From the NCBI GenBank assembly GCA_041662625.1, contig JBAZSB010000001.1, positions 855,710 through 919,709 of the forward strand: DNA of 64,000 nt. Direction: 5' to 3'. Made by a program: the position numbers and the translations under genes. The notes under the pieces are model-generated. The model did no database searches. It was not told where the DNA came from and was given only the letters and a program-made list of their open reading frames with translations. Each line of letters starts with the position of its first letter. The stretch's first letter is position 1. The DNA is from Patescibacteria group bacterium. Its GTDB lineage: Bacteria > Patescibacteriota > Patescibacteriia > Buchananbacterales > UBA6539. Of the stretch, positions 23,988 to 58,321 are shown one piece after another.

Positions 23988-26903
23988 ATGCCTATTCCTG
24001 GTTTATCGGTCAGAACTAAATCGCCTCAAGATTGGCGGAAGAAAAGTTATTTTCGCCGCCACTTGCCCAAGCGGGGTTTTGGTAAAAAACCAATTTTTAC
24101 CGGCCGCCGGAAAAAATTACCTGCCAATCTAGTTAAAGCTGGCTTAACTTTAGGTGCCTTTGGTATTGCCTTTTTTGGTATTGTCAGTATTATCATGTTG
24201 GCTTGGATTGCCCGCGATTTACCCAATCCCAACCGAATTATTGACCGCTCAATTGCTTTGAGCACCAAAATTTATGACCGCACCGGTGAAACTTTGCTTT
24301 ATGATGTCCATGGCGATGAAAAAAGAACTTTTGTCAGCTTAACTGATATCCCAGAGAGTTTGAAAGAGGCTACACTAACGGCGGAAGACCGAAAATTTTA
24401 TGAGCATGGCGGCATCAGTATTACCGGTATCATCCGGTCCGTCATAAAAAATACTTTAACCGGCAGTAAAGTTGGCGGTTCAACTTTAACCCAACAATTG
24501 GTGAAAAATGCGATTTTAAGTCCGGAGAAAAAATACACCCGGAAAATCAAAGAAGTGATTCTGTCTTACCAGATTGAAAAAAAATTCAGCAAAGATGAAA
24601 TTTTACAGATGTATTTCAATGAAATCCCTTATGGTTCAGTGGCGTATGGGGCCGAAGCCGCCAGCCAAACTTATTTTGGCAAAGGTGTCAAAGGCCTCAG
24701 CTTAGCCGAAACAGCAATTTTAGCCGCCCTGCCCCAGGCCCCGACGTATTATTCGCCTTATGGCGGTCATATTGATGCCTTATTTGCCCGGCAGCACTGG
24801 ATTTTGGACAGTATGGCTGAACTTGGTTATATCACCGAGCAAGAAGCTGAGTTGGCCAAGGCGGAAAAAGTTGAATTCAAGAAACGATCAGAAAACATGA
24901 TGGCTCCCCATTTTGTCATGTACGTTAAGGAATATTTAACCGAAAAATACGGCGACTTGGTGGTTGAACAAGAAGGTTTGCAAGTAATTACCACCCTTGA
25001 TCTATATAAACAAAAAATTGCCGAGGAAGCAGTGGCCGAAGCTATAGAAAAAAATGTTAAAAATTATAACGCCAATAATGCGGCACTGGTGGCCTTAGAC
25101 CCCAAGAACGGCCAAATTTTAGCCATGGTTGGTTCCAAAGACTATTTTGCTGATCCTGCCCCAGAAGGCTGCACTCCGGGCAAAGACTGCGTCTTTGATC
25201 CCCAGGTCAACGCCGTTACCAGCCTGCGCCAGCCCGGTTCTTCCTTTAAACCAATTGTCTATACCGCCGCTTTCAAAAAAGGCTATACCCCAACTACTAT
25301 CCTTTATGATGTAGTAACAAAATTTTTAAATTACGACGGCAGAGACTACGAACCGAAAAACTATGATTTGAAAGAACACGGCCCAGTTACGATGAGGCAG
25401 GCCCTACAGGGTTCTTTAAATATCCCGGCAGTAAAAACCATTTACTTAACCGGGGTTGATAATGTCATTGATTTAGCCGAAGACTTGGGTTACACCAGTT
25501 TCAGAGACCGCAGCCGTTTTGGTCTTTCTTTAGTTTTGGGTGGCGGCGAAGTTAAGCTTTTGGAACATACGAACGCCTATGCGACTTTAGCCCGCGAAGG
25601 CGAATGGCACCCGCCAGTAGCAATTTTAGAAGTTAAAGATAAAGACGGTAATATTTTGGAAGAATACAAAAACAAAGAAAAGAAAGTTTTAGCCACCCAA
25701 ACCGCCCGCCAAATTAATAATGTGCTAACTGATAATGCTAGTCGCGCTTTTATTTTTGGTGAAAGTAATTATTTAACTTTGGGTGGCCGGCCTGTTGCCG
25801 CCAAAACCGGTACCACGAATGATTATCATGATGCCTGGACTTTGGGCTACACTCCATCTTTGGCCGTTGGCGTCTGGGTGGGCAATAATAATAACAGTGA
25901 AATGAAACGGGGCGCCGACGGCAGTATTGTCGCGGCTCCAATTTGGCATACTTTTATGCAACGGGTTTTGGGTGATACTCCGGCTGAAGGTTTTAAAGAA
26001 CCGGACGCGGTCCAAACCGATAAACCGGTTTTAAACGGCAGTATTGCTGAAGGCGTAAAAGTTAAAATTGATAAAACTACCGGTTTACTGGCCACTAATC
26101 TCACCCCGGAAAGCCAGGTGGAAGAAAAAACTTTCCGCCAAGTCCATTGTATTCTTTATTACATCAACAAAGACGACCCGCAAGGTAATTCAGCACCTGA
26201 CCTGAATGACCCACAATATCCACGCTGGGAGGAAGCGGTCCAACGCTGGGCCAAGGAAAATAATATCGTGTCCGAAAACCCGCCAACTGAATATGATACC
26301 ACTCATACCACGGCTGATCAGCCAAAAATTGAAATTGTTGCACCCGACTCTAACCAAACCATTACCAGTCGGGATTTCAAAGCTACAGTTACCACTTCGG
26401 CTCCCCGCGGCGTAACCCGAGTTGAATATTACCTCAATGATCAATTGCTGAAAAATGTCACCACTTCCCCTTTCAATCTTGAGGTGTTCCTCGAAGACCC
26501 TGGTCTCCGCAGCGGGTTTTATACTCTGAAAGCAATTGCCTATGATGATGTTGATAATAATAAAAGCGACCAGATTGAATTAAATTTTCAGCTCAAAGCC
26601 CTGCCTGCCGTCTTAGACTGGGTTAAGCCAACTGATAACCAAGACATAAAGACGAAAGATTTTCCTTACCCAATCAAAGTTAATTTAAATAATTCTTCAA
26701 ACATTCAAAAAATTGACCTTTATTATGAAACTACAGACGGTCAGGCCAACTACATTAATACTGTCCGCCAATTTTCCGATAGTCAATTAAATACCCAGTG
26801 GCTTTCCCCTCCCCCGGCTGGCACTTACAAGCTCTACGCCGAAATCACCAATAACGACGGCTACACCTACCGCGGCGGGGAAATCACGGTGACGGTTAAA
26901 TAA
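23988..26903 (+). CDS. Class A penicillin-binding protein (GT51 transglycosylase plus transpeptidase) with a C-terminal Ig-like extension
   Basis: EDRKFYEHGGI (GT51), SSFKP, SLN, KTGT; TM anchor after a basic N-terminus. An in-frame ATG at 23988 is preferred over the TTG at 23976. Confidence 0.85.
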   Translation: MPIPGLSVRTKSPQDWRKKSYFRRHLPKRGFGKKPIFTGRRKKLPANLVKAGLTLGAFGIAFFGIVSIIMLAWIARDLPNPNRIIDRSIALSTKIYDRTGETLLYDVHGDEKRTFVSLTDIPESLKEATLTAEDRKFYEHGGISITGIIRSVIKNTLTGSKVGGSTLTQQLVKNAILSPEKKYTRKIKEVILSYQIEKKFSKDEILQMYFNEIPYGSVAYGAEAASQTYFGKGVKGLSLAETAILAALPQAPTYYSPYGGHIDALFARQHWILDSMAELGYITEQEAELAKAEKVEFKKRSENMMAPHFVMYVKEYLTEKYGDLVVEQEGLQVITTLDLYKQKIAEEAVAEAIEKNVKNYNANNAALVALDPKNGQILAMVGSKDYFADPAPEGCTPGKDCVFDPQVNAVTSLRQPGSSFKPIVYTAAFKKGYTPTTILYDVVTKFLNYDGRDYEPKNYDLKEHGPVTMRQALQGSLNIPAVKTIYLTGVDNVIDLAEDLGYTSFRDRSRFGLSLVLGGGEVKLLEHTNAYATLAREGEWHPPVAILEVKDKDGNILEEYKNKEKKVLATQTARQINNVLTDNASRAFIFGESNYLTLGGRPVAAKTGTTNDYHDAWTLGYTPSLAVGVWVGNNNNSEMKRGADGSIVAAPIWHTFMQRVLGDTPAEGFKEPDAVQTDKPVLNGSIAEGVKVKIDKTTGLLATNLTPESQVEEKTFRQVHCILYYINKDDPQGNSAPDLNDPQYPRWEEAVQRWAKENNIVSENPPTEYDTTHTTADQPKIEIVAPDSNQTITSRDFKATVTTSAPRGVTRVEYYLNDQLLKNVTTSPFNLEVFLEDPGLRSGFYTLKAIAYDDVDNNKSDQIELNFQLKALPAVLDWVKPTDNQDIKTKDFPYPIKVNLNNSSNIQKIDLYYETTDGQANYINTVRQFSDSQLNTQWLSPPPAGTYKLYAEITNNDGYTYRGGEITVTVK

Positions 26904-27021
26904 CTCGGGTATAAATGGGTTATAGTAAGCTATTTATTCAAAAAATATCTGGCATTTTAGCCAAAAAATCAACAGGTTCGTATAACCCTAGTTAGACGAA
27001 ATTTTTGGCCACTAACCAATC

Positions 27022-27738
27022 ATGGCAAACAAAATCATCAAAAAATATAAGGTAACAAAAAAAGGTCTTGGCGGTACTATAGACAGACTAGCTGATGATT
27101 TATTACCTTTTGTGGCCAATGGCACAATTATCAACGGCGGCAACTTCCAAATCAGAGAAGGCATCTATAAAACTCATTATCTCGCCACCGCTACTTTTGA
27201 GGCTGCAACTTTATTGTATAAAAAATCTAAGACAAAAAATAAAAAAGTAACTCTGTCTTTTCTGATTGATAACTTCAGCATCCGCAATAAGGGCTTTAAG
27301 ATGCCAAAAGAGTACCTGAAAATTCAAAAAAAGTATAACATCAACCCTAAAAAAATTTTATATTTTAAAGAAAACCAACTTAGAAACCGAGCAGCTAGGA
27401 TTTTACTTAAACAACTTACCAAAAAAGAAGTTAACCAAGGTAGTATATTCATAAAAAGTAAACTACCGAAACAAAAGTTTGAAGTCGCAAGAATACATAA
27501 AATGCTTAAAATTTTTACACCACTTGGAACAGCACTATTGGCTCAACAACTTTTTGATAGTGAAAAACAAGGAAATAAAGTTGCCGTCAATTTAATGCAT
27601 GAAGGTTCTTATGAATCTAAGGGTGGTGCCAATGCTTTTGTTTATCACTTACTTGGCGGCAAAATGAAAGTGTTAAATGTATACTTTAGAGAAAAGGCAA
27701 AAAAGATTGAAATTGAGGTTACTTTTCATGATAAATAA
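27022..27738 (+). CDS. Hypothetical protein
   Basis: 238-aa ORF, Lys-rich, no recognised motif. Confidence 0.3.
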   Translation: MANKIIKKYKVTKKGLGGTIDRLADDLLPFVANGTIINGGNFQIREGIYKTHYLATATFEAATLLYKKSKTKNKKVTLSFLIDNFSIRNKGFKMPKEYLKIQKKYNINPKKILYFKENQLRNRAARILLKQLTKKEVNQGSIFIKSKLPKQKFEVARIHKMLKIFTPLGTALLAQQLFDSEKQGNKVAVNLMHEGSYESKGGANAFVYHLLGGKMKVLNVYFREKAKKIEIEVTFHDK

Positions 27739-27759
27739 GTAGGCGGCCAAAAACTCCAT

Positions 27760-27895
27760 CTAACACGTTTTATGTGGCTCGCCCTTTATTAAGAAATTCA
27801 GCTCGCCTACATCGCTCGTTTGTTTGTGTGGTTGCGCATCCGCGCAATTGTACCACACCACAAACGTCACGACGTCACATAAAACGGTAACGTTA
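27760..27895. mobile_element. MITE-like inverted-repeat element, family B copy 1
   Basis: 5' CTAACACGTTTTATGTGG ... 3' CACATAAAACGGTAACGTTAG form terminal inverted repeats around an internal GC-rich stem. The element is shared with 28256-28425. Confidence 0.5.
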
Positions 27896-27978
27896 GGTGA
27901 AATTGACTTTCCTAACTTAAAGAAAAAAGCCCGCCGATCAGAGTCCGTCGAGCTTGTATAATTGCATGGTACGAAAAA

Positions 27979-28167
27979 TCAGCTAAATAGCTTAATGAGC
28001 AAAATCACAAATATGAACGTGGCTGACCCTACTCCAGCCAGAATGCCAGCCCATGCAGTCCAAGGATTACTTTTTCTGGCAATATAACCAAGACGGAACA
28101 TGAGAAGACTCGCAATCAACTCAAGAATCCATTGCCCGGTAGTCAATGGCAATAACTGATCTTCCAT
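27979..28167 (-). CDS. Small 2-TM membrane protein (62 aa), higher GC, strong SD
   Basis: AAGGAGGTG lies 7 nt upstream of the ATG. Two hydrophobic helices. Sits between two family-B repeat copies. Confidence 0.4.
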   Translation of the reverse strand: MEDQLLPLTTGQWILELIASLLMFRLGYIARKSNPWTAWAGILAGVGSATFIFVILLIKLFS

Positions 28168-28255
28168 CTCACACCTCCTTTACCATGTTGGTACTTAGCT
28201 GAAGTTAATCACAAAATACCACTCTTGTCAACTATAAAACGGAAGGTCAATATCA

Positions 28256-28425
28256 CCTAACACGTTTTATGTGGTTCCCCTCTCGACTCACTTAAATTAA
28301 CCTGAAACATCGCTCGAGGTTCACCCAAATCGCTTGTCGTCTTAGGTGGTTGACTCCGTCAGATTATACCACCACGACGACTGCGCGACGTCACATAAAC
28401 CGGTAACGTTGTCGGAAATTGGGTT
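28256..28425. mobile_element. MITE-like inverted-repeat element, family B copy 2
   Basis: Same termini as copy 1. The internal stem differs but keeps base-pairing (GTCGTCTTAGGTGGT / ACCACCACGACGAC). Confidence 0.5.
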
Positions 28426-28479
28426 GTTTTCCCCAACCACTATATACTATATAATCCACTTATAATTACTTAAATTGCT

Positions 28480-29094
28480 ATGGAACAAAAAAACAATGTA
28501 TGGACCATTACCCTCGCCATCATCATTGCTGCAGTTATTGTCGGCGGTGGATTTTATTATTGGCAACAATCACAGTTAGAATTAATGGATGAAGCGATTA
28601 CAGATTTAAAAAATGAAAATCAGGCCCTAACAAATAAGGCGACTCCAATAGAAAATGAAAATAATAATATTAGAATAAACCAACTCTTAACTTTAGATGC
28701 TAGTAGCACGTTATGTACTAAAAGTCCAACTACAGAATCAAGTGATATTGGTGGAGATTATACTATCTATCCGGTAGCAGATGAATACAAAACTACAGCT
28801 GACGATTATCATAATATTGCTGGTTTATTTACTGCTGCTGCTTGCGGTAAAGCACGCCTAAATGAACTTTTTGGTTCAAAAACTTTTCGCGATGTCGCAA
28901 TATTTACCCAAGATCCTAGCAGCAGTTTAATTGAGTACTTAAACAAAAATGGCTTTGCGTGCGATGATGATAAAATACCAGATAATCGTTGCAGTCGCTG
29001 GCATAATAATGGCCCAGTTCCCCTTGAGGTCCTGGTCGGGCTTAGAGAGTGGGCTACAATGATATACGGCTCAGATTGCACAGATTGCGGATAG
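28480..29094 (+). CDS. Hypothetical membrane-anchored Cys-rich protein
   Basis: N-terminal TM helix, coiled-coil segment, and 8 Cys in the C-terminal half. Confidence 0.3.
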   Translation: MEQKNNVWTITLAIIIAAVIVGGGFYYWQQSQLELMDEAITDLKNENQALTNKATPIENENNNIRINQLLTLDASSTLCTKSPTTESSDIGGDYTIYPVADEYKTTADDYHNIAGLFTAAACGKARLNELFGSKTFRDVAIFTQDPSSSLIEYLNKNGFACDDDKIPDNRCSRWHNNGPVPLEVLVGLREWATMIYGSDCTDCG

Positions 29095-29105
29095 TAAACA
29101 GCCCA

Positions 29106-29130
29106 ACAATCCGACAACACGTTTTGTGTG
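29106..29130. repeat. Solo terminal-repeat fragment of family B element
   Basis: CGACAACACGTTTTGTGTGCC versus the 5' TIR TCTAACACGTTTTATGTGGC. Confidence 0.35.
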
Positions 29131-29159
29131 CCATTGGCGAATAAATTATCTAATAACAT

Positions 29160-29630: not shown

Positions 29631-29692
29631 TTTATTCACCAGCAACACACCACACGCTTTATCCGGTTCGCGCTTGCTAAATAAAATTATTT

Positions 29693-30202
29693 ATGCAGAT
29701 AAAACGATTGAATGCCAATCAAATAATCACGCTTACTGACTTTCCTGTTTACAACGAACAGATATTGAAAATATTTTTTCTGATATTTAGAAAAAAATGT
29801 TCCAAAATCATTCCACCTTGCCCTATAATGGCCATATCTTTAGTGGTTCCTTATTTCTCCGGCAAACTAAAAATAGTTTTTTCTAAATTTGCAAGTCGAA
29901 ACCCCCAAGCCAAATATTTTTTACTCGATGGCAGTCACAAAACGACCGCGGCGACACTAACTGGATCAAAAATCGCCGTGATGATCTTTCAAAACAACAA
30001 AGACATACAAATAGCGAAAAACATGGTAAAAACTGGTGATTTATTTAGCTTAATGGTAGACAATACCATTAAAGATAATGCCATTGAATTAAAACGTCAT
30101 TTCAACAAGAAAAAATGTTTTCAAACAGTAGAGGAAAAAACTAAATTAATGGTAAAGAAGAAAGTTATTCCCCAATACATGATTAACTACTATAACAGGT
30201 GA
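29693..30202 (+). CDS. Hypothetical protein
   Basis: 169 aa; weak LLDGSHKTTAA resemblance to the ParB/Srx-fold motif; unassigned. Confidence 0.25.
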   Translation: MQIKRLNANQIITLTDFPVYNEQILKIFFLIFRKKCSKIIPPCPIMAISLVVPYFSGKLKIVFSKFASRNPQAKYFLLDGSHKTTAATLTGSKIAVMIFQNNKDIQIAKNMVKTGDLFSLMVDNTIKDNAIELKRHFNKKKCFQTVEEKTKLMVKKKVIPQYMINYYNR

Positions 30203-30261
30203 CATTTTATCAGATTCGCGAGCTGAATAAAATTTTAACCTGCAAGAACTAAGCAAATGAT

Positions 30262-30699
30262 ATGAAAGTAGGAAAAGACTATATTGGTGTTGGTTGCGGC
30301 GCCATTATAATAAATGACAAAAACGAAGTATTGTTAATGAAACGGGCCAAAGATTCCCGGGTAGATGCCGGAATGTGGTGTCGGCCTGGCGGCAAAGTCG
30401 AATTTGATGAATCAGCACCTGAAGCGGTCGAAAGAGAAGTTAAAGAAGAAACCGGCCTTATAATAAAGGTAATTCGAACTTTAGATTTTAGTGAAAAAAT
30501 ATCTGAAGATAAAACCACCCACTGGGTTTCTTTGGGTTTTTTGGCCAAACTTATTTCCGGAGAACTTAAAAATGTAGAGCCTGATAAACATGATGAGATT
30601 AAATGGTTCCCGCTAAATAATCTGCCAAATGGTCTTGCGGAAAATACGAAAAAATCTATTGATTTTTACTTAACACGAGCAGCCGGTTCGCATAATTAA
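30262..30699 (+). CDS. NUDIX hydrolase
   Basis: Nudix box GGKVEFDESAPEAVEREVKEETGL. Confidence 0.85.
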   Translation: MKVGKDYIGVGCGAIIINDKNEVLLMKRAKDSRVDAGMWCRPGGKVEFDESAPEAVEREVKEETGLIIKVIRTLDFSEKISEDKTTHWVSLGFLAKLISGELKNVEPDKHDEIKWFPLNNLPNGLAENTKKSIDFYLTRAAGSHN

Positions 30700-30706
30700 T
30701 CGGGCT

Positions 30707-31204
30707 ATGAGCTTTTACATAATAATCCGTGGACCACTTGGCTGTGGAAAATCTACAATATCTGAAAAATTATCTAAAATTTTAAACGCGGAATACTTTG
30801 CCGTGGATAGAGTCTTAGATGAATACGATTTAACCAAAGATAAAGAAGATGGGTATATCTCGCAAAAAAGCTTTATCAAAGCAAACGAAATAATTACCCA
30901 AAGGGCTGAAAAAATTTTAGCTAATAATCGTTCAGTAATATTTGACGGTAATTTCTACTGGAAATCGCAAGTTGATGACCTGATTAAAAGACTTGGTTTC
31001 CCACACTATGTTTTCACTTTAAAAGCGCCTTTGGAAATCTGCATTGAACGAGATAGTAAAAGGGATAAAATCCACGGCAGTGATGCGGCAGAAGCAGTCT
31101 ACAAAAAATCAACTGAGTTTGATTACGGGATAGTCGTTGATATATCTAAATCTTTAGATGAAGCCGCAAGAAAAATTATTTCTCATTTACCTAAGTCCGA
31201 TTAA
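30707..31204 (+). CDS. P-loop NTPase / small nucleoside(nucleotide)-kinase-like protein
   Basis: Walker A IIRGPLGCGKST; 165 aa, the size of a shikimate/gluconate/deoxynucleoside-kinase fold. Confidence 0.5.
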   Translation: MSFYIIIRGPLGCGKSTISEKLSKILNAEYFAVDRVLDEYDLTKDKEDGYISQKSFIKANEIITQRAEKILANNRSVIFDGNFYWKSQVDDLIKRLGFPHYVFTLKAPLEICIERDSKRDKIHGSDAAEAVYKKSTEFDYGIVVDISKSLDEAARKIISHLPKSD

Positions 31205-31233
31205 TTATTTAACGCGCTCACCCAAATAAAATT

Positions 31234-43978: not shown

Positions 43979-44268
43979 AGGATTAAAGTTATTTATTAGG
44001 TATTACCTCTTTATTTTAGGGGGTTTTAGGGAGAGTGTCAATCTGGTAAAAATCGCAAATTACAAATCTCAAATTCCAAACAAATTCAAAATCTCAAATT
44101 CAAAATTCAAAACGTTAATTCCAAGAAGTTTGTAATTTTAGATTTTGAATATTGTAATTTGTTTGATATTTGTAATTTGGAATTTGGTGCTTATACTTTA
44201 ATTCCCTCTTGCCTTTTTAAATCACTCATGCTATCCTTATTTTTGTTACTTAATTAATTCAAATTACT

Positions 44269-45562: not shown

Positions 45563-45702
45563 GTAGAGTAGTTGGTAAGTTTATAAGTTGGTAAGTTGAA
45601 AAGTTGGCGTAGTTATTTTAACAAAGATTAAGTTTTTTAGAAAGGAAAGAGCGCCTCGGCTGGGGAAGTCGAGGCGCTCGGTTTCGATGTTGATGTCAGA
45701 GG

Positions 45703-47274
45703 TTACCGTCTGGCTTTGTGGGCAGAGGCAATCTCTTCCATACGGGCTCGCAGGGAGCCAGCATCCCGGGCCGGAGCGGCCTGGGAGCGTTCATTGTGGT
45801 GGGAGCGGCCGTTGCCGCCTTTGTGGTCCTGCCGTTGGGGGCGAGTCCGGGGGCGGTCGTCGTGATGCTGGTCGCGGCGTTGGCTGATTTTCACCTGGCG
45901 GCGAACAGCGCAGCAGCGGGGCAGACCCAGCCAGTACATCGGGCAGGTACCACCCGACTGGTCTGGCAGGCGGCACATCCTGCCAGTGGCGCACTGCTCT
46001 TGGCCCCGATGCCACTTGGTCTCATCCAAGGCCAAGGTGATTGCCGCCACGATCTCCTGGGTCGTCAGCAGGGTGGGCTCCACCTCTGGGTGGCTCAGGG
46101 AGCCATTCAGGAGGTTGATGCCGATTGTGATAACGATTGGACCCTTGCCGCGGCGGACCGTGATTTCCTTCTTGGGGTAATGCCAGGCCGGGGCGTCATC
46201 GATCGTGCCTTCGGCAGAGAGGTCTTGCCAGTCTTGGAAGGTGGCCTGCGTCATCTTGCCGGTCCTGATGCGGGCTGCAATCTCGTAGTAGCGGATGGCC
46301 CGGACTACGCTATCGAAGTCGATGTGGCGGTTCCGGCGGTAGAAGATCTGGGTCTGACCGCCTTGCCACCGCATTACCACGATATCGGCCTCGTCGCCAT
46401 ATTTGCTCATGGCCGCACTCGGCATCTGGGCTGCCAACTGCGCCAAAGGCGAGAGCTGATCGCCACGAGGCATGGGTTCGGGCAGCTCGATCACGACGAG
46501 CCGGTACATCAGTCGAACCCACTGGTCTTCACCCTTGGTACGCTTCTTGACCATTGGGCCGGGGATCTCGGCGACTTTGCTGGCCAACTCGCGGTACTTG
46601 CTGACCACTTGGGTCATGAAAGACTCTCGTTGACCGAGATGGGTTGTCAGTAGGAACCGGCCGATTCTGATCGCGGCCAGGGATCCGAACTGACGACCCG
46701 TGCCTTTGCCCATGGCACTCGGTCCAAGCGGATTGCGGTCGCCATTCCGGTCTTCCCACTGGATGTACCCCAGCATGCGGGTGAATACCGGGTCATCCTT
46801 GATACCAAGGATTCCCGCCATCAGACTGGTGGCGCACTCGTGGCGAAATCCGCTCTGGTGTTCGTCCACCGGTCCCTTGGCGATTCCGATCGGCAAAGTG
46901 CCTTCGTGGAGGTGGGCTTCGATGGGCCGACTGTCCGGGGTTTCTTGCGCCGTACCCCAGAATTGAATCAGGTCTGGATCCTTCCTGCCTTTTGTCTTCC
47001 CGCCATCATCAAGGGCCATTTTGATCAGCTTTTCGATGCCCGGGAATACCACCTCTCCCCGATGCTCAAGGAGCACAAGGGCTCCAACTTCGTCAAGGTG
47101 AGGAAAGTGGTGGGTGGCAAGCCGTTTTACCAGCTTACCTTTCCCGCTCGGGTGGGGGGGGAGGAGATCAAGCAAAGCTTGCATCCTTTTCACCTGCTCC
47201 TGATAAGCCGGTGGCTTGCCCCTCTCACTTGTTGCTGCCGGTGTTACTTTCGGTGCTGTGGTGCTTGCTACCAT
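45703..47274 (-). CDS. Hypothetical 523-aa protein on a high-GC (about 60%) foreign island
   Basis: SD AAAGGAGCGGAACC upstream of the ATG; a 10-bp GC hairpin terminator at 45649-45679; strong GC contrast with the flanks; basic disordered C-terminus. Confidence 0.5.
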   Translation of the reverse strand: MVASTTAPKVTPAATSERGKPPAYQEQVKRMQALLDLLPPHPSGKGKLVKRLATHHFPHLDEVGALVLLEHRGEVVFPGIEKLIKMALDDGGKTKGRKDPDLIQFWGTAQETPDSRPIEAHLHEGTLPIGIAKGPVDEHQSGFRHECATSLMAGILGIKDDPVFTRMLGYIQWEDRNGDRNPLGPSAMGKGTGRQFGSLAAIRIGRFLLTTHLGQRESFMTQVVSKYRELASKVAEIPGPMVKKRTKGEDQWVRLMYRLVVIELPEPMPRGDQLSPLAQLAAQMPSAAMSKYGDEADIVVMRWQGGQTQIFYRRNRHIDFDSVVRAIRYYEIAARIRTGKMTQATFQDWQDLSAEGTIDDAPAWHYPKKEITVRRGKGPIVITIGINLLNGSLSHPEVEPTLLTTQEIVAAITLALDETKWHRGQEQCATGRMCRLPDQSGGTCPMYWLGLPRCCAVRRQVKISQRRDQHHDDRPRTRPQRQDHKGGNGRSHHNERSQAAPARDAGSLRARMEEIASAHKARR

Positions 47275-50273: not shown

Positions 50274-50355
50274 AGTAAATTAAGCGAGTTCAGTAAATTA
50301 AGCGAGTTAAGTCCACTTAATTTACTGAACTCGCTGAACTCGCTTAATTTACTTA
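50274..50355. repeat. Composite palindromic repeat immediately upstream of the polA start
   Basis: Units A=AGTAAATTAA and B=GCGAGTTC are arranged A-B-A-B / gtccac / A'-B'-B'-A'. Confidence 0.6.
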
Positions 50356-50832: not shown

Positions 50833-51801
50833 TTAGTTCGGGATCAGCCCCAGTTCGTCCAGCACCCGCTTCAGAATCGCAGTGTTGGCCGGTTGCATCG
50901 GGACCAGCGGTAGTCTGAAACAGGCTTTCTCGATCACTTTCCTCTGGGCAAGAGCCTCTTTCACGCCCAACGGGTTGGTCTCGATGAAAAGACCTCCTTT
51001 ACCGAAGAGTGTTTCCAGTCGGTGGTGGATGGCAAAGCCAGCCGCTCGGTCATCACATATTTGGCCGTTAGCCGCAGCGAAGTGGTCAACCATAACCTTG
51101 ACTTGGTCAGTGATGCAGGATGCGACTGAAATCACACCGTTGCAGTCGCCAGTCGCCATGACTTGAGCCGTGATGCCGTCATCACCAGACCAGATGACAA
51201 AGTCCGCTGGGCATTGTTTCCGTAAGGCAGCGAAGCGAGCCGGGTCACCTTCAGCTTCTTTGTGGCCGATGTAATGGGGGAATTCCCGAGCCAGTTCGAC
51301 AATCACCTCGACTGGAATGGGTCCGCCGCCGGTCCGTGCCGAAACCGAGTAGCTGATGAAGGGGATACCGAGTTTGGCGATGGCTCGGAAATGCGCCAGC
51401 ACACCCTCCGGCGTGGGGTTGTTGTAGTACGGCTTTACGATCAAAACCGCATTGGCGCCAGCTTCGGCCGCTCTCCTGGTTAGCCAGATCGCCTCCTTGG
51501 TGCTGTTGGCACCAGTGCCAGCGATAACCGGAACGCGACCGTCGACCGTACCGATGGTCCAGGAAATGTAGGCGAGTTGTTCTTCATGACTCATGGTCGC
51601 CGGCTCGCCCGTGGTGCCGGCCGCCAGGATGGCGTCGTTGCGGCATGGGTCGATGAGATGGTCAATCAGTTTGGCCTGCTGCGCAAAATCGATTGGCGCA
51701 TCATCTGGTCCCAAGCCATTACTGGCATAGACCGTGGGCATTGCTGGGATACAGCGCAAAGCCCTGGCTGTCTTTCTGGTCAGTAGCTCATGTGGTTTCA
51801 T
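50833..51801 (-). CDS. DapA/NAL-family class I aldolase (dihydrodipicolinate-synthase-like), high GC
   Basis: AAGTTGE, YYN, IGHKEAEG (Schiff-base Lys region); GC about 58%. Confidence 0.6.
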   Translation of the reverse strand: MKPHELLTRKTARALRCIPAMPTVYASNGLGPDDAPIDFAQQAKLIDHLIDPCRNDAILAAGTTGEPATMSHEEQLAYISWTIGTVDGRVPVIAGTGANSTKEAIWLTRRAAEAGANAVLIVKPYYNNPTPEGVLAHFRAIAKLGIPFISYSVSARTGGGPIPVEVIVELAREFPHYIGHKEAEGDPARFAALRKQCPADFVIWSGDDGITAQVMATGDCNGVISVASCITDQVKVMVDHFAAANGQICDDRAAGFAIHHRLETLFGKGGLFIETNPLGVKEALAQRKVIEKACFRLPLVPMQPANTAILKRVLDELGLIPN

Positions 51802-51927: not shown

Positions 51928-51993
51928 AGTAAATCAAGCTGGCAAGTTAGTAAGCAGCTTGATTTACTGATTAACTTGCTAGCTTGATTTACT
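51928..51993. repeat. Palindromic repeat cluster immediately upstream of smc
   Basis: AGTAAATCAAGCT / AGCTTGATTTACT is a perfect 13-bp inverted repeat, plus a third direct copy; related to the 50274 repeat units. Confidence 0.6.
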
Positions 51994-55656: not shown

Positions 55657-55754
55657 CAAAAACATTTCATTAAATTGAAGGCGGCATCTTGCGATGCTGT
55701 CTTTTTTTAGTCTCGTTTGACATTATTATTAGTCGTGCTAAGATAGGAATATGA

Positions 55755-55877
55755 CCCGGTAGTGATCCCCCCACTTTTATATGTGGGATCACAAACGGGT
55801 GAGATATAAAAAATTATAATTAATATTATTAATAGATAACTCCCATAATTAAAAAAGTGGGGGGGACTACTACCGGG
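55755..55877. mobile_element. 123-bp MITE, family C copy A, with 24-bp TIRs and a TATGA target duplication
   Basis: CCCGGTAGTGATCCCCCCACTTTT ... AAAAGTGGGGGGGACTACTACCGGG; flanked by TATGA on both sides. Confidence 0.8.
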
Positions 55878-56003
55878 TATGAAAATTAACCTTAGCCAAA
55901 ATTCAAGCTGGTCAAATGGTTCAAGCTCAAGCAGTTCATCATGCTGCCGCTTTTTTGGTGGAAGGTTAATTTCTGGCTAAATCATAGACCAATTCAGATA
56001 GAA

Positions 56004-56076: not shown

Positions 56077-57384
56077 ATGACGAGAAGAATAGAAGGAAGG
56101 GCAGTATTACTGCTCGACAATATTGGCCCGGAGGCTGTACCAATCCTGGAGCAAGTGGGTGTCAGAGTCATTGATGCCAAGCGAGGTTTTGACAAAGATG
56201 CTGAAGCTGCTTTGTGTCAGTACATTACCGTGAATTTCCAAACCGGCGAATTAGCTGCCATCTGCCTGCGTAGTTCGACTACACTGGGAGCAGCGATCAT
56301 GCCGTTTCTGCGAGAAATGGGCGTCGAACTCATTGTCCGGTTTGGCTCAGGAACGGATAACATTGATGAGACAGCCGCCAGTGAAGTCGGGATCATCGTG
56401 GAGAACACGGCTGGCCAGAATGCCAATGGCGTAGCCGAGCTCGTGCCCGCTTTCATGGTTGCCTTGACTCGAAATGTTGATAAGGCCATCAAGGCGATGC
56501 TTGCCCGAGAAATATTGCCCAAGCTGTTGGCTGCTAGAGCACAGTTGAGCGATTGCCCGAGTGCTATTGATGAGCTGGTCACCCAGTTGCAAGGTTATGC
56601 TAAGGCTGAGAAGACCGGCTTTAAGGGTACCGAGATCGAAGGCAAGACGGTAGGCATCATCGGCTTGGGCCGAATTGGCTCAAAGGTAGCCAGAAAACTG
56701 CTCGGTATGGGGATGAAGGTTTTGGCTTATGACCCGAAATCCGAGCTGGAAATTACTGGTGTCACTCGAGTTGAACTGGCAACGCTTCTGGCCGAGTCAG
56801 ACTTCATCACCATCCACGCCAGTGGCAGCCAGCAGTTGATTGGTCAAGAAGAGATTCAGCAGATGGCAAAAAGACCATATCTGTTTAACCTCGCGCGGCG
56901 TGGGGTCGTGGATTTGGCGGCAGTTATGGCGGCACTGCAGGCCGATCAACTAGCCGGCTTTGCGTCAGACCTGGACGATCCGGCACATCCCGTATTTGGT
57001 TTGGCTCATACGATCATCACGCCTCACATCGGTGCCACCACTAAAGAGTCAGAAGCACGCTGTGCTCAAGTAGGTGCTCAACACGTGGTCGACTGGCTGA
57101 CTGACGGTTTCATCTGTGATGGCGTCAATATTCCGGACACGGCTATCAAGCGACGTCAGAATGGCCGGTTGGTGGTCTTGAACCGGAATGAGCCGGGAGC
57201 ACTTGGCGCAGTTACTGACTGCGTGAGAGATCGAGGCCTCAATATTCATTCCTTGGCGAATGAAGGTCGGGAACGGGGTGGACTGGCCTACACCGTCATG
57301 GACCTAGATGATCCTTTTGGTGAAGACCTGATTGCTGCCCTGGCAGCGTTGCCTCAGGTCGTGAGGGTTATTGGTTTGAAGTAA
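56077..57384 (+). CDS. serA: D-3-phosphoglycerate dehydrogenase-like 2-hydroxyacid dehydrogenase with a C-terminal ACT domain, high GC
   Basis: GIIGLGRIGSKVA NAD-binding motif, catalytic-domain pattern, C-terminal ACT (RLVVLNRNEPGALGAV); SD AAGGAG; GC about 55%. Confidence 0.75.
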   Translation: MTRRIEGRAVLLLDNIGPEAVPILEQVGVRVIDAKRGFDKDAEAALCQYITVNFQTGELAAICLRSSTTLGAAIMPFLREMGVELIVRFGSGTDNIDETAASEVGIIVENTAGQNANGVAELVPAFMVALTRNVDKAIKAMLAREILPKLLAARAQLSDCPSAIDELVTQLQGYAKAEKTGFKGTEIEGKTVGIIGLGRIGSKVARKLLGMGMKVLAYDPKSELEITGVTRVELATLLAESDFITIHASGSQQLIGQEEIQQMAKRPYLFNLARRGVVDLAAVMAALQADQLAGFASDLDDPAHPVFGLAHTIITPHIGATTKESEARCAQVGAQHVVDWLTDGFICDGVNIPDTAIKRRQNGRLVVLNRNEPGALGAVTDCVRDRGLNIHSLANEGRERGGLAYTVMDLDDPFGEDLIAALAALPQVVRVIGLK

Positions 57385-57444: not shown

Positions 57445-57517
57445 TAATATTTTTTTGCTTTAATATTTGTTTGTAATTTCCTGGATTAATTTTTTACAAA
57501 TTGGCAAGGCGGGTTGA

Positions 57518-57639
57518 CCCGGTAGTGATCCCCCCACTTTTATATGTGGGATCACAAACGGGTGAGATATAAAAAATTATAATTAATATTATTAATAGAT
57601 AACTCCCATAATTAAAAAAGTGGGGGGACTACTACCGGG
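57518..57639. mobile_element. MITE, family C copy B, with a TTGA target duplication
   Basis: Differs from copy A only by a one-base G-run length; flanked by (G)TTGA on both sides. Confidence 0.8.
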
Positions 57640-57668
57640 TTGACAAAGCTATTATTTGTTGTATAATA
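57640..57668 (+). promoter_or_regulatory. Sigma-70-like promoter of khpA
   Basis: TTGACA-17 bp-TATAAT; the -35 box incorporates the MITE target duplication. Confidence 0.55.
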
Positions 57669-57807: not shown

Positions 57808-58122
57808 ATGGCAGCAAAAGAAGCTGATCAAGAGTTTGTCGAACACCTTGTCAAAGCCATTGTGGCTAACCCAAGTGATGTGAAGACAGAACGAACAGTT
57901 GACGAGATGGGAGTATTAATTACTCTTCATCTAAACCCATCAGACATGGGCTATGTCATTGGCCGCCAAGGCCAAACTGCTCGGGCAATCCGCACCCTCC
58001 TTAAAATTGTTGGTGCTAAACACAATGCCCGGGTCAACCTCAAAATTCATGAACCTGAAGGTTCAAGACGAGGCCGAGCTGCTGAAGCTGATACTTCAGT
58101 AGTCGACGATTTAAAAATCTAA
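57808..58122 (+). CDS. khpA: KH-domain RNA-binding protein (KhpA/YlqC, UPF0109)
   Basis: GYVIGRQGQTARAIRTLLKIVGAKHNARVNLKI; ATG at 57808 preferred (the track start at 57790 is GTG). Confidence 0.75.
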   Translation: MAAKEADQEFVEHLVKAIVANPSDVKTERTVDEMGVLITLHLNPSDMGYVIGRQGQTARAIRTLLKIVGAKHNARVNLKIHEPEGSRRGRAAEADTSVVDDLKI

Positions 58123-58321
58123 CTAGGATTTTCCCCCCTCACCTTCTGCACGTCATCAAACTAATTGACCAAGTTTTTCAAGAGTTTGCATCAATTAGTT
58201 TATGAAGATAATGATGGATAGAAGGTGAGGGGGGTTTGTTTACCAAAAGTTAGACAAAAGTGGCGATAATTGTTAAATTTAAGTATATAAGTCTATTTAA
58301 AATAGCTCTGTTTCATAGAAT

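Follow-up and report, generated by a model that had tools for sequence, protein, structure and literature searches.

Integrons are the main gene-capture platforms of bacteria, and they are defined by an integrase (IntI) with a specific additional domain and by extrahelical bases in the attC recombination sites. The extrahelical bases in the attC L box set the choice of strand, and in the structure of the Vibrio cholerae integrase VchIntIA with a V. cholerae repeat (VCR) the additional domain reportedly contacts them. In integrative mobile elements exploiting Xer recombination (IMEX), the CTX phage integrates at dif via a folded single-stranded hairpin, using Xer recombinases. Archaeal integrons, found in metagenome-assembled genomes (MAGs) and mostly as clusters of attC sites lacking integron integrases (CALINs), have taken integrons beyond the classical bacterial phyla; their IntIs keep the additional domain, and their attCs fold canonically (Ghaly et al. 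2022, PMC9668308). For the ultra-small bacteria of the Candidate Phyla Radiation (CPR, Patescibacteria), no report of integrons was found in the literature searched, which is not proof that none exists, and the word "integron" has zero occurrences in the CPR reviews searched. The subject here is a 64,000-nucleotide stretch of DNA, called the window below, from a Patescibacteria group bacterium (GCA_041662625.1, contig JBAZSB010000001.1, positions 855,710–919,709), in which one structured element is repeated on either side of a small open reading frame (ORF). These repeats are very probably attC-type recombination sites of an integron-like cassette array that has lost its integrase in the window.

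The element is present as two direct copies, at 27758–27898 (copy 1) and 28255–28414 (copy 2). The initial annotation had described two direct copies with common termini, and both arms are indeed found in the sequence, though the end it gave for the second copy, 28425, takes in GAAATTG, the conserved start of the next cassette. Common to both copies are an 18-nt 5' arm, CTAACACGTTTTATGTGG, and a 25-nt 3' arm, CGACGTCACATAAA(A/C)CGGTAACGTT; a 19-mer of the 3' arm occurs twice in the window (at most 3 mismatches), with 0.02 occurrences expected by chance. The inner stems are unlike in sequence yet pair – CGTTTGTTTGTGTGGT/ACCACACCACAAACG against GTCGTCTTAGGTGGT/ACCACCACGACGAC – as had been noted before and as is confirmed by the sequence and by the folds of both copies. 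The folding energy of copy 1 is far better than that of shuffled sequence (z of −5.4 on the plus strand and −6.1 on the minus strand). Independent assemblies of four metagenomes yielded the same arrangement of the locus around the repeats, which rules out an assembly artefact.

Both copies have the nested layout of an attC-like site on the plus strand. Site 1 (27758–27898), delimited from its sequence, folds, family alignment and pair counts, scores 140.6 bits with the covariance model R1 described below. Its outer 5' part consists of R'' ATCTAAC (27758–27764), a one-base spacer A (27765) and L'' CGTTTTATGTG (27766–27776); its interior of a variable arm (27777–27811) and a long inner stem with a capped loop (27812–27872); and its outer 3' part of L' CACATAAAACG (27876–27886), the spacer GTAAC (27887–27891) and R' GTTAGGT (27892–27898). 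Site 2 (28255–28414), delimited from sequence and alignment, scores 159.4 bits. It begins with R'' ACCTAAC (28255–28261), the spacer A (28262) and L'' (28263–28273), continues with a hairpin arm and the junction TTCACCCAAAT and then an inner stem, and ends with L' CACATAAACCG (28392–28402, with one T.C mismatch), the spacer GTAAC (28403–28407) and GTT (28408–28410). The R''/R' core sites are thus ATCTAAC/GTTAGGT in site 1 and ACCTAAC/GTTGTCG in site 2.

The two copies belong to a larger family. A scan for the exact 3' arm found two further members, both in Patescibacteria MAGs, when one genome per species was searched, and ca. 20 further members in JGI metagenomes. All of these kept both arms and had unrelated inner stems, and one family member compensates the single L-stem mismatch of copy 2. 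When 17 distinct members were aligned, 12 pairs of the resulting consensus fold had changed on both sides; the covariance model R1, built from this alignment, detects 86 sites in 23 sources. Across these 86 sites, 91.3% of cells were paired, against 69.8% in shuffled sequence and 32–43% when the partners were slid past each other; pairing is somewhat inflated because the alignment follows the model, yet the margin remains large. Double-sided change was seen in 27 of the 29 pairs, so that the compensatory change put forward in the initial annotation is borne out by the covariance check.

The fold is conserved in its outer part and variable inside. In distant arrays the L stem is entirely different and still pairs (e.g. 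CCGAATATGAG/CTCATATTCGG and GCGTATATCTG/CAGATATACGC), and in 60 of the 60 analysable sites it has uninterrupted Watson-Crick pairing, with a median of 11 bp. The spacers between R and L are unpaired and measure 1 nt in the 5' arm and 4–5 nt in the 3' arm in 52 of the 60 sites. The family alignments show conservation of the triplets AAC and GTT; the distance from one to the other is 46–192 nt. The best-conserved sequence consists of the 3' arm together with the first 11 nt of the next cassette.

Strong covariation, a location 10–30 nt past stop codons on the coding strand, and an architecture of several stems whose junction motifs (TCACCCAAAT and ATTATACC) are conserved are also what one would see if the repeats were structured RNAs – 3' untranslated regions, terminators or regulatory elements transcribed with the upstream gene – and a cis-acting RNA was one of the identities first proposed. 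This is very unlikely. No Rfam family passed its gathering score, and even at E≤10 nothing in Rfam overlapped either repeat; no known RNA family, tRNA or tmRNA was found. A structure that is transcribed gathers G-U pairs on one strand, which the other strand shows as A-C. Here the mispairs on the coding strand were 38 G-T and 55 A-C, about equally rare (two doubtful pairs set aside), and the wobble test found both strands able to fold; the palindrome is therefore symmetric at the DNA level, which fits a DNA structure and not a strand-specific RNA. There is no T-tract after the structure, and the junction motifs are absent from the short members of 46–90 nt. Two features of the arrays, an exact cassette duplication that stops at GTT and linkage to a recombinase and an attI-like region in 12 of 12 loci, likewise speak against RNA elements. 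A retron msr/msd-like RNA, with its outer pairing, short hairpin and long hairpin, was also considered and rejected: there is no adjacent reverse transcriptase, the sites occur in arrays, and at the DNA level their structure is symmetric.

In the larger comparison loci, referred to by number (L016, L025, L015, L019, L029 and others), the sites follow one another in arrays, all pointing the same way, at a median spacing of 727 nt, and in related Patescibacteria the arrays reach 10 or more cassettes. The longest ORF is on the strand of the site in 45 of 57 cassettes and usually ends 10–30 nt before the site. ORFs and sites share the plus (model) orientation in L025, L016 and L015; this refutes the minus strand as the attC "top" strand, an assignment tried on the basis of the extra bases of the 3' arm and the minus-strand ORF of the window.

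The boundaries of the cassettes are marked by a duplication in L040, where a unit of 872 nt is present in two copies of 98.4% identity. The identity starts directly past the GTT of two different preceding sites and stops at the ...ACACGTT of the unit itself; beyond this point the flanks diverge. This is the pattern expected from site-specific insertion of a cassette at GTT. Content varies between close relatives. L043 has a DnaA at least 90% identical to that of the window and a backbone of ca. 82% nucleotide identity, and it is syntenic with the window from polA to the nitroreductase gene adjoining dnaN. Beyond the nitroreductase gene, up to the end of its contig, L043 has a different and larger array of at least 10 sites, and the only cassette it has in common with the window, that of a 169-aa ORF (89.6% identical), is at another position.

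Miniature inverted-repeat transposable elements (MITEs), a hairpin of this kind being the other identity first proposed, would be non-autonomous transposons with terminal inverted repeats that had inserted by chance on either side of a small gene. The family resembles MITEs and repetitive extragenic palindromic (REP)-type repeats in being short (140–160 nt in the window), palindromic, intergenic and repeated, with multiple copies in related genomes. Neither copy has a target-site duplication, however, and copies within a locus form strict arrays with a shared orientation and one-gene spacing. The linked enzyme is a tyrosine recombinase, no transposase is associated, and model R1 finds only two intact copies in the 64 kb, both inside the array. 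Transposition of this kind is thus highly improbable as the origin of the repeats.

Some of the genes in or next to the arrays of relatives are of the defence type (L039 1–9711, L041 1–9739, L042 11401–16636). They include genes for a reverse transcriptase, an AAA_15/AAA_21 ATPase, a ResIII helicase, N6_N4 methyltransferases, a SMODS cyclase and an anti-Pycsar-like protein, a content that resembles that reported for chromosomal integrons. In L007, a GC-rich structured element of ca. 170 nt (2062–2235, AATGCGCCGCGG...CCGCGGCGCATT) starts directly past the GTT of an attC-like site, placed as if inserted at the crossover point.

The arrays are linked to a tyrosine recombinase. At the head of the L016 array is a divergent gene for a protein of 275 aa with PF00589 and PF13495, and homologues with 45–75% identity are equally placed in L010, L027, L029, L033, L019 and L035. 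When five further homologues (52–67% identity) were chosen solely by the length of their contigs, R1 sites adjoined all of them. The recombinase is also upstream and divergent in L037, L039, L040 and L041, while in L042 the array is downstream of the recombinase and co-oriented with it, so that the linkage, to a recombinase of 270–290 aa, holds for all 12 loci examined. Among loci with a close homologue (58–75% identity), 7 of 9 have the gene upstream and divergent, with a conserved attI-like region before the array. This region of ca. 110 nt lies between the start codon of the recombinase and the first cassette and ends in ...TCAACAAGTTCGTATAAT..TAGTT. Aligned across nine integrase-bearing loci and the window, it reads ...TTTTAG..AAAA.TCAACAGGTTCGTATAA...TAGTT, followed by RNNNGAAAT, and RNNNGAAAT likewise follows the GTT of every attC-like site.

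The recombinase has ca. 8000 homologues at E≤1e-20, most of them 270–290 aa long and from Patescibacteria where a source is named, with the annotation "site-specific tyrosine recombinase/integron integrase" or "XerD". The catalytic residues R131, K156, H221, R224, H247 and Y256 are invariant in 22 members and align with the motifs of VchIntIA. In profile comparisons with solved structures, the Vibrio integron integrase scored highest (227 bits), followed by XerA (211 bits) and XerD (137 bits), and a C-terminal SPLD tail is common to the recombinase and the Vibrio integron integrase. Longer homologues are extended at the N-terminus only. Six of these (P0055, P0056, P0069, P0072, P0074 and P0102), of 347–408 aa, share a conserved N-terminal extension (FPYNP..KGxxWHP..KxWxxP) and have nothing inserted where the IntI additional domain would be.

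The array of the window starts at an attI-like region on the plus strand (26905–26993, crossover triplet GTT 26991–26993), which aligns with those of the nine integrase-bearing loci. It begins 2 nt past the stop codon (26901–26903) of the gene for PBP1a, and only the attI-proximal 70–90 nt of the conserved ca. 110 nt are kept; the recombinase gene and its start are absent. The window is a chromosome segment carrying dnaA, dnaN, polA, holA, the PBP1a gene and an smc-like gene, on a source contig of 922 kb. The attI-like site is ca. 12 kb from dnaA/dnaN and at the minimum of the cumulative GC skew, and is therefore at the origin and not a terminus dif site.

Cassette 1 (26994–27894, plus strand), between the attI-like GTT and the GTT of site 1, contains a 238-aa ORF (27022–27738) with no Pfam match, and site 1. 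Cassette 2 (27895–28410, plus strand), which contains the 62-aa ORF and site 2, is taken to be bounded by the GTT triplets at 27892–27894 and 28408–28410, by analogy with the duplicated cassette in L040. The layout first described as "repeat – small cargo gene – repeat" is that of a true cassette. The 62-aa ORF (27979–28167, minus strand, from the ORF list) has two hydrophobic segments. As described earlier, it lies between the copies with a Shine-Dalgarno sequence, AAGGAGGTG at 28172–28180, 4 nt upstream of its ATG, and with raised GC content (0.44–0.46, against 0.27–0.35 in neighbouring genes). The peptide is an ORFan, with no homologue except itself among 5.8 billion proteins; it has no Pfam match, and no promoter-like site was found for the ORF. 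The role of a type I toxin hinted at in the initial annotation (a small hydrophobic peptide, toxic when expressed, with an overlapping antisense RNA) is unsupported: what is established for the peptide is its hydrophobicity and its lack of homologues. JGI annotates it as a hypothetical protein. In the NCBI record of the source MAG, the flanking genes have consecutive accessions (WC675_04385 and WC675_04390) and the ORF is without annotation.

Beyond cassette 2, the sites are decayed. Cassette 3 (28411–29140, plus strand) contains an ORF of 204 aa (28480–29094) whose product has a membrane anchor at its N-terminus. The cassette ends in a scar, CCGACAACACGTTTTGTGTGCCATTGG at 29106–29140, where the 3'-flank motif GTTGTGTGCCATTG is joined straight onto a 5' arm. 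The same 3' flank (GTGTGCCATTG) follows intact sites in L021 and L031. The scar scores only E=0.74 with model R1; judging from its sequence, its hairpin was probably lost between the short repeats TT(A/G)TGTG. Within it is the solo terminus AACACGTTTTGTGTG (29116–29130, 1 mismatch), which had been recognised before as a third terminus and is a real relic of a third site. A cytidine-deaminase-like ORF follows, and then a decayed half-site (29645–29721, plus strand; 5' arm CACACGCTTTATCCGG, then GGTTCGCGCTTGCTAAATAAAATTATTTATG) that extends into the beginning of the 169-aa ORF, with E=0.11 for model R1 and E=0.72 for nhmmer. The half-site module also precedes another ORF in L037, and it is conserved with the 169-aa ORF in L043.

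Further relic motifs are found in the intergenic sequences between co-oriented small genes (30203–31227, plus strand): AAC directly followed by AGGTGACATTTT at 30205–30220, and the junction motif GCTCACCCAAAT at 31216–31227. The motif GYTCRCCYAMAT has 4 matches with 0.11 expected, 3 of them in this array on the plus strand. The two attI-proximal cassettes have intact sites and the distal ones decayed sites, a gradient that would fit the insertion of new cassettes at attI. The window holds a two-cassette, integrase-less remnant of an integron-like array, partly fossilised and comparable to a CALIN.

The half-site was also seen as a module that includes a start codon, GGTTCGCGCTTGCTAAATAAAATTAT(TT)ATG, before different ORFs (window 29663–29695, L037 7757–7838, L043 14162–14712). 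In L043 it travels with the cassette of the 169-aa ORF, which is 89.6% similar, against 82% for the backbone.

An Xer-type recombinase acting on duplex modules, like those of dif, pdif or IMEX, would share several of these features. The enzyme would read the double-stranded 3' end, CGGTAACGTT plus RNNTGAAAT, and the long palindrome would have another role, e.g. in terminating transcription or in insulating cassettes from one another. The recombinase lacks the IntI domain and is colinear with XerA of archaea, conservation is strongest just where such an enzyme would bind, in the 3' arm and the start of the next cassette, and in L040 the recombinase gene is 1.8 kb from ftsK. This explanation is nonetheless unlikely. 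The L stem covaries between arrays with pairing kept, for which a duplex binding site has no need; the attI-like site of the window is at the origin and not at a terminus dif; and dif modules are not known to form arrays of 10 or more units.

Several observations weigh against the identification of the repeats as attC-type sites. For copy 2, the folding energy is not better than that of shuffles (z of −1.3 and −1.4), so that its structure rests on covariation and comparative evidence. The 62-aa ORF is oriented against the array, an arrangement shared with a minority of the family (12 of 57 cassettes, or 21%, have their longest ORF on the opposite strand, cassette 2 of the window included). Unlike classical attC sites, only about a quarter of family sites fit the full 7-nt consensus RYYYAAC/GTTRRRY (16 of 60 and 17 of 60, ca. 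27%); the match of copy 1, which gave the first hint of attC, is partly luck. Classical attC sites have extrahelical bases in the L stem, and the family sites have none. The IntI-specific additional domain near patch III, of ca. 42 aa, is absent from the family recombinase (ca. 275 aa): it has 12–14 residues where VchIntIA has 54–56, with query residues 180–193 (14 aa) aligned to VchIntIA 184–239 (56 aa), or 180–191 to 185–238 in the profile alignment, and its match to TIGR02249 is split in two and reaches 229 bits against a cut-off of 265. No excised or empty form was present among the four assemblies of this locus. Finally, neither a recombinase nor a remnant of one was found in the 64-kb window by Pfam on 20 ORFs, tblastn or a six-frame family profile, so that activity at this locus cannot be assumed.

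The repeats are nevertheless very probably attC-type sites. The sequences show that they belong to one family with a conserved structure, that this family is arrayed and linked to the recombinase, that the attI-like regions are homologous, that cassettes are bounded at GTT, and that the window has no recombinase. Each site is an imperfect palindrome of which a single strand folds into a hairpin. From the outside inwards, this hairpin has an R stem ending in the invariant triplets AAC and GTT, a fixed asymmetric spacer, an L stem of 11 bp, and a variable, often branched interior. Each site closes one gene cassette, and 27895–28410 is the second cassette of an array starting at the attI-like site at 26991. 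As in integrons, the IntI-like recombinase would excise cassettes by site-by-site recombination and insert them at attI, with the crossover at GTT; its action on the sites, the folded single strand as its substrate, and the strand it would use are inferred from anatomy and sequence comparison. In the window, the recombinase gene has been deleted, and the array is a remnant that is either frozen or dependent on an enzyme supplied in trans. This reading accounts for the ORFan gene and the repeats, and also for the series of small genes, unrelated to each other, that extends from 27 kb to at least 31 kb.

Other elements were noticed elsewhere in the window. Direct repeats of 125 nt, 99–100% identical, at 55754–55879 and 57517–57640, flank a GC-rich serA-like gene (56077–57384, GC content 0.52). 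Each is a hairpin, ACCCGGTAGTGATCCCCCCACTTTT...AAAAGTGGGGGGACTACTACCGGGT, without AAC/GTT ends. They were tried as family members and rejected, with no R1 match and no copy in any fetched locus; the serA cassette, cited at first as a parallel, belongs to a different and unrelated 125-nt family. A very stable hairpin of 139 nt (58117–58255), directly past an ORF with a KH domain, has the ends ATCTAAC...GTTAGAC, which fit RYYYAAC/GTTRRRY. It was rejected as a member of the R1 family (E=5.4, wrong strand, no copy elsewhere), and may be a terminator or a solitary site belonging to a different type of attC.

At 45644–47235, a 523-aa ORF (GC content 0.60, no Pfam match) replaces the 546-aa ORF of L043 (3062–4769), and both flanks (polA and holA) are syntenic with L043 at ca. 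82%; foreign DNA seems to have replaced a gene here. A GC-rich (0.52) gene of the dihydrodipicolinate-synthase family (50833–51801) is located between long AT-rich palindromes at 50274–50353 and 51928–51993 (AGTAAATTAAGCGAGTT... and AGTAAATCAAGCTGGCAAGTTAGTAAG...). Dense AT-rich inverted repeats (CAAATTACAAATCTCAAATTCC...) at 44050–44199, between the region of a bactofilin-like gene and holA and ca. 4 kb from dnaA, may be related to the replication origin.

Compared with the attC sites of integrons and the VCR array of V. cholerae, the family sites are alike in their AAC...GTT palindromes, their nested R and L stems and their variable interior, and in a structure that is kept while the sequence varies. 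Like chromosomal integrons, the arrays have one site per ORF, mostly promoterless and co-oriented, with boundaries at GTT; they adjoin a divergent tyrosine recombinase and an attI; their content is hypervariable between relatives, and many cassette genes are ORFans. They differ from classical attC in the asymmetric spacer between R and L (1 nt in the 5' arm and 4–5 nt in the 3' arm), in a cassette start conserved out to TTRNNNGAAAT, and in sites of up to 190 nt, often with three-way junctions. The host phylum, Patescibacteria, differs from that of classical integrons.

The wider system looks, from these comparisons, like an undescribed integron variant. The absence of the additional domain and the absence of extrahelical bases would be coherent with each other. 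It is conceivable, at slightly below the balance of probability, that the CPR has its own widespread class of integron, with an integrase that is a sister of IntI without the additional domain and with sites that use the asymmetry of the spacer instead of extrahelical bases. Such a class would be a second solution to hairpin recognition, possibly intermediate between Xer and the classical integron integrases, and criteria of the IntegronFinder type, which require the additional domain, would miss it. If the system is as described, CPR bacteria, a large share of bacterial diversity with very small genomes in which gene turnover matters, would join the users of cassette capture. Hairpin recombination would be possible without the additional domain, which bears on the origin of integrons from Xer-like recombinases; a blind spot would exist in current integron detection; and a compact pair of enzyme and site would be available for recombination assays.

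Three described systems come closest. The window is like a CALIN in having two intact sites (140–159 bits) and relics with no recombinase within 64 kb, and unlike one in keeping an attI-like site at the head of the array, which suggests a recently deleted integrase gene and not an orphan cluster. The Xer/IMEX systems are alike in that recombination between a duplex site and a folded single-stranded hairpin is possible for an Xer-type enzyme that has no IntI domain. They differ in that IMEX elements integrate singly at the terminus dif, against arrays of several cassettes here, which have an attI-like site of their own close to the replication origin. Archaeal integrons likewise extend integrons past the classical phyla, and the Patescibacteria family differs from them in having a recombinase without the additional domain.

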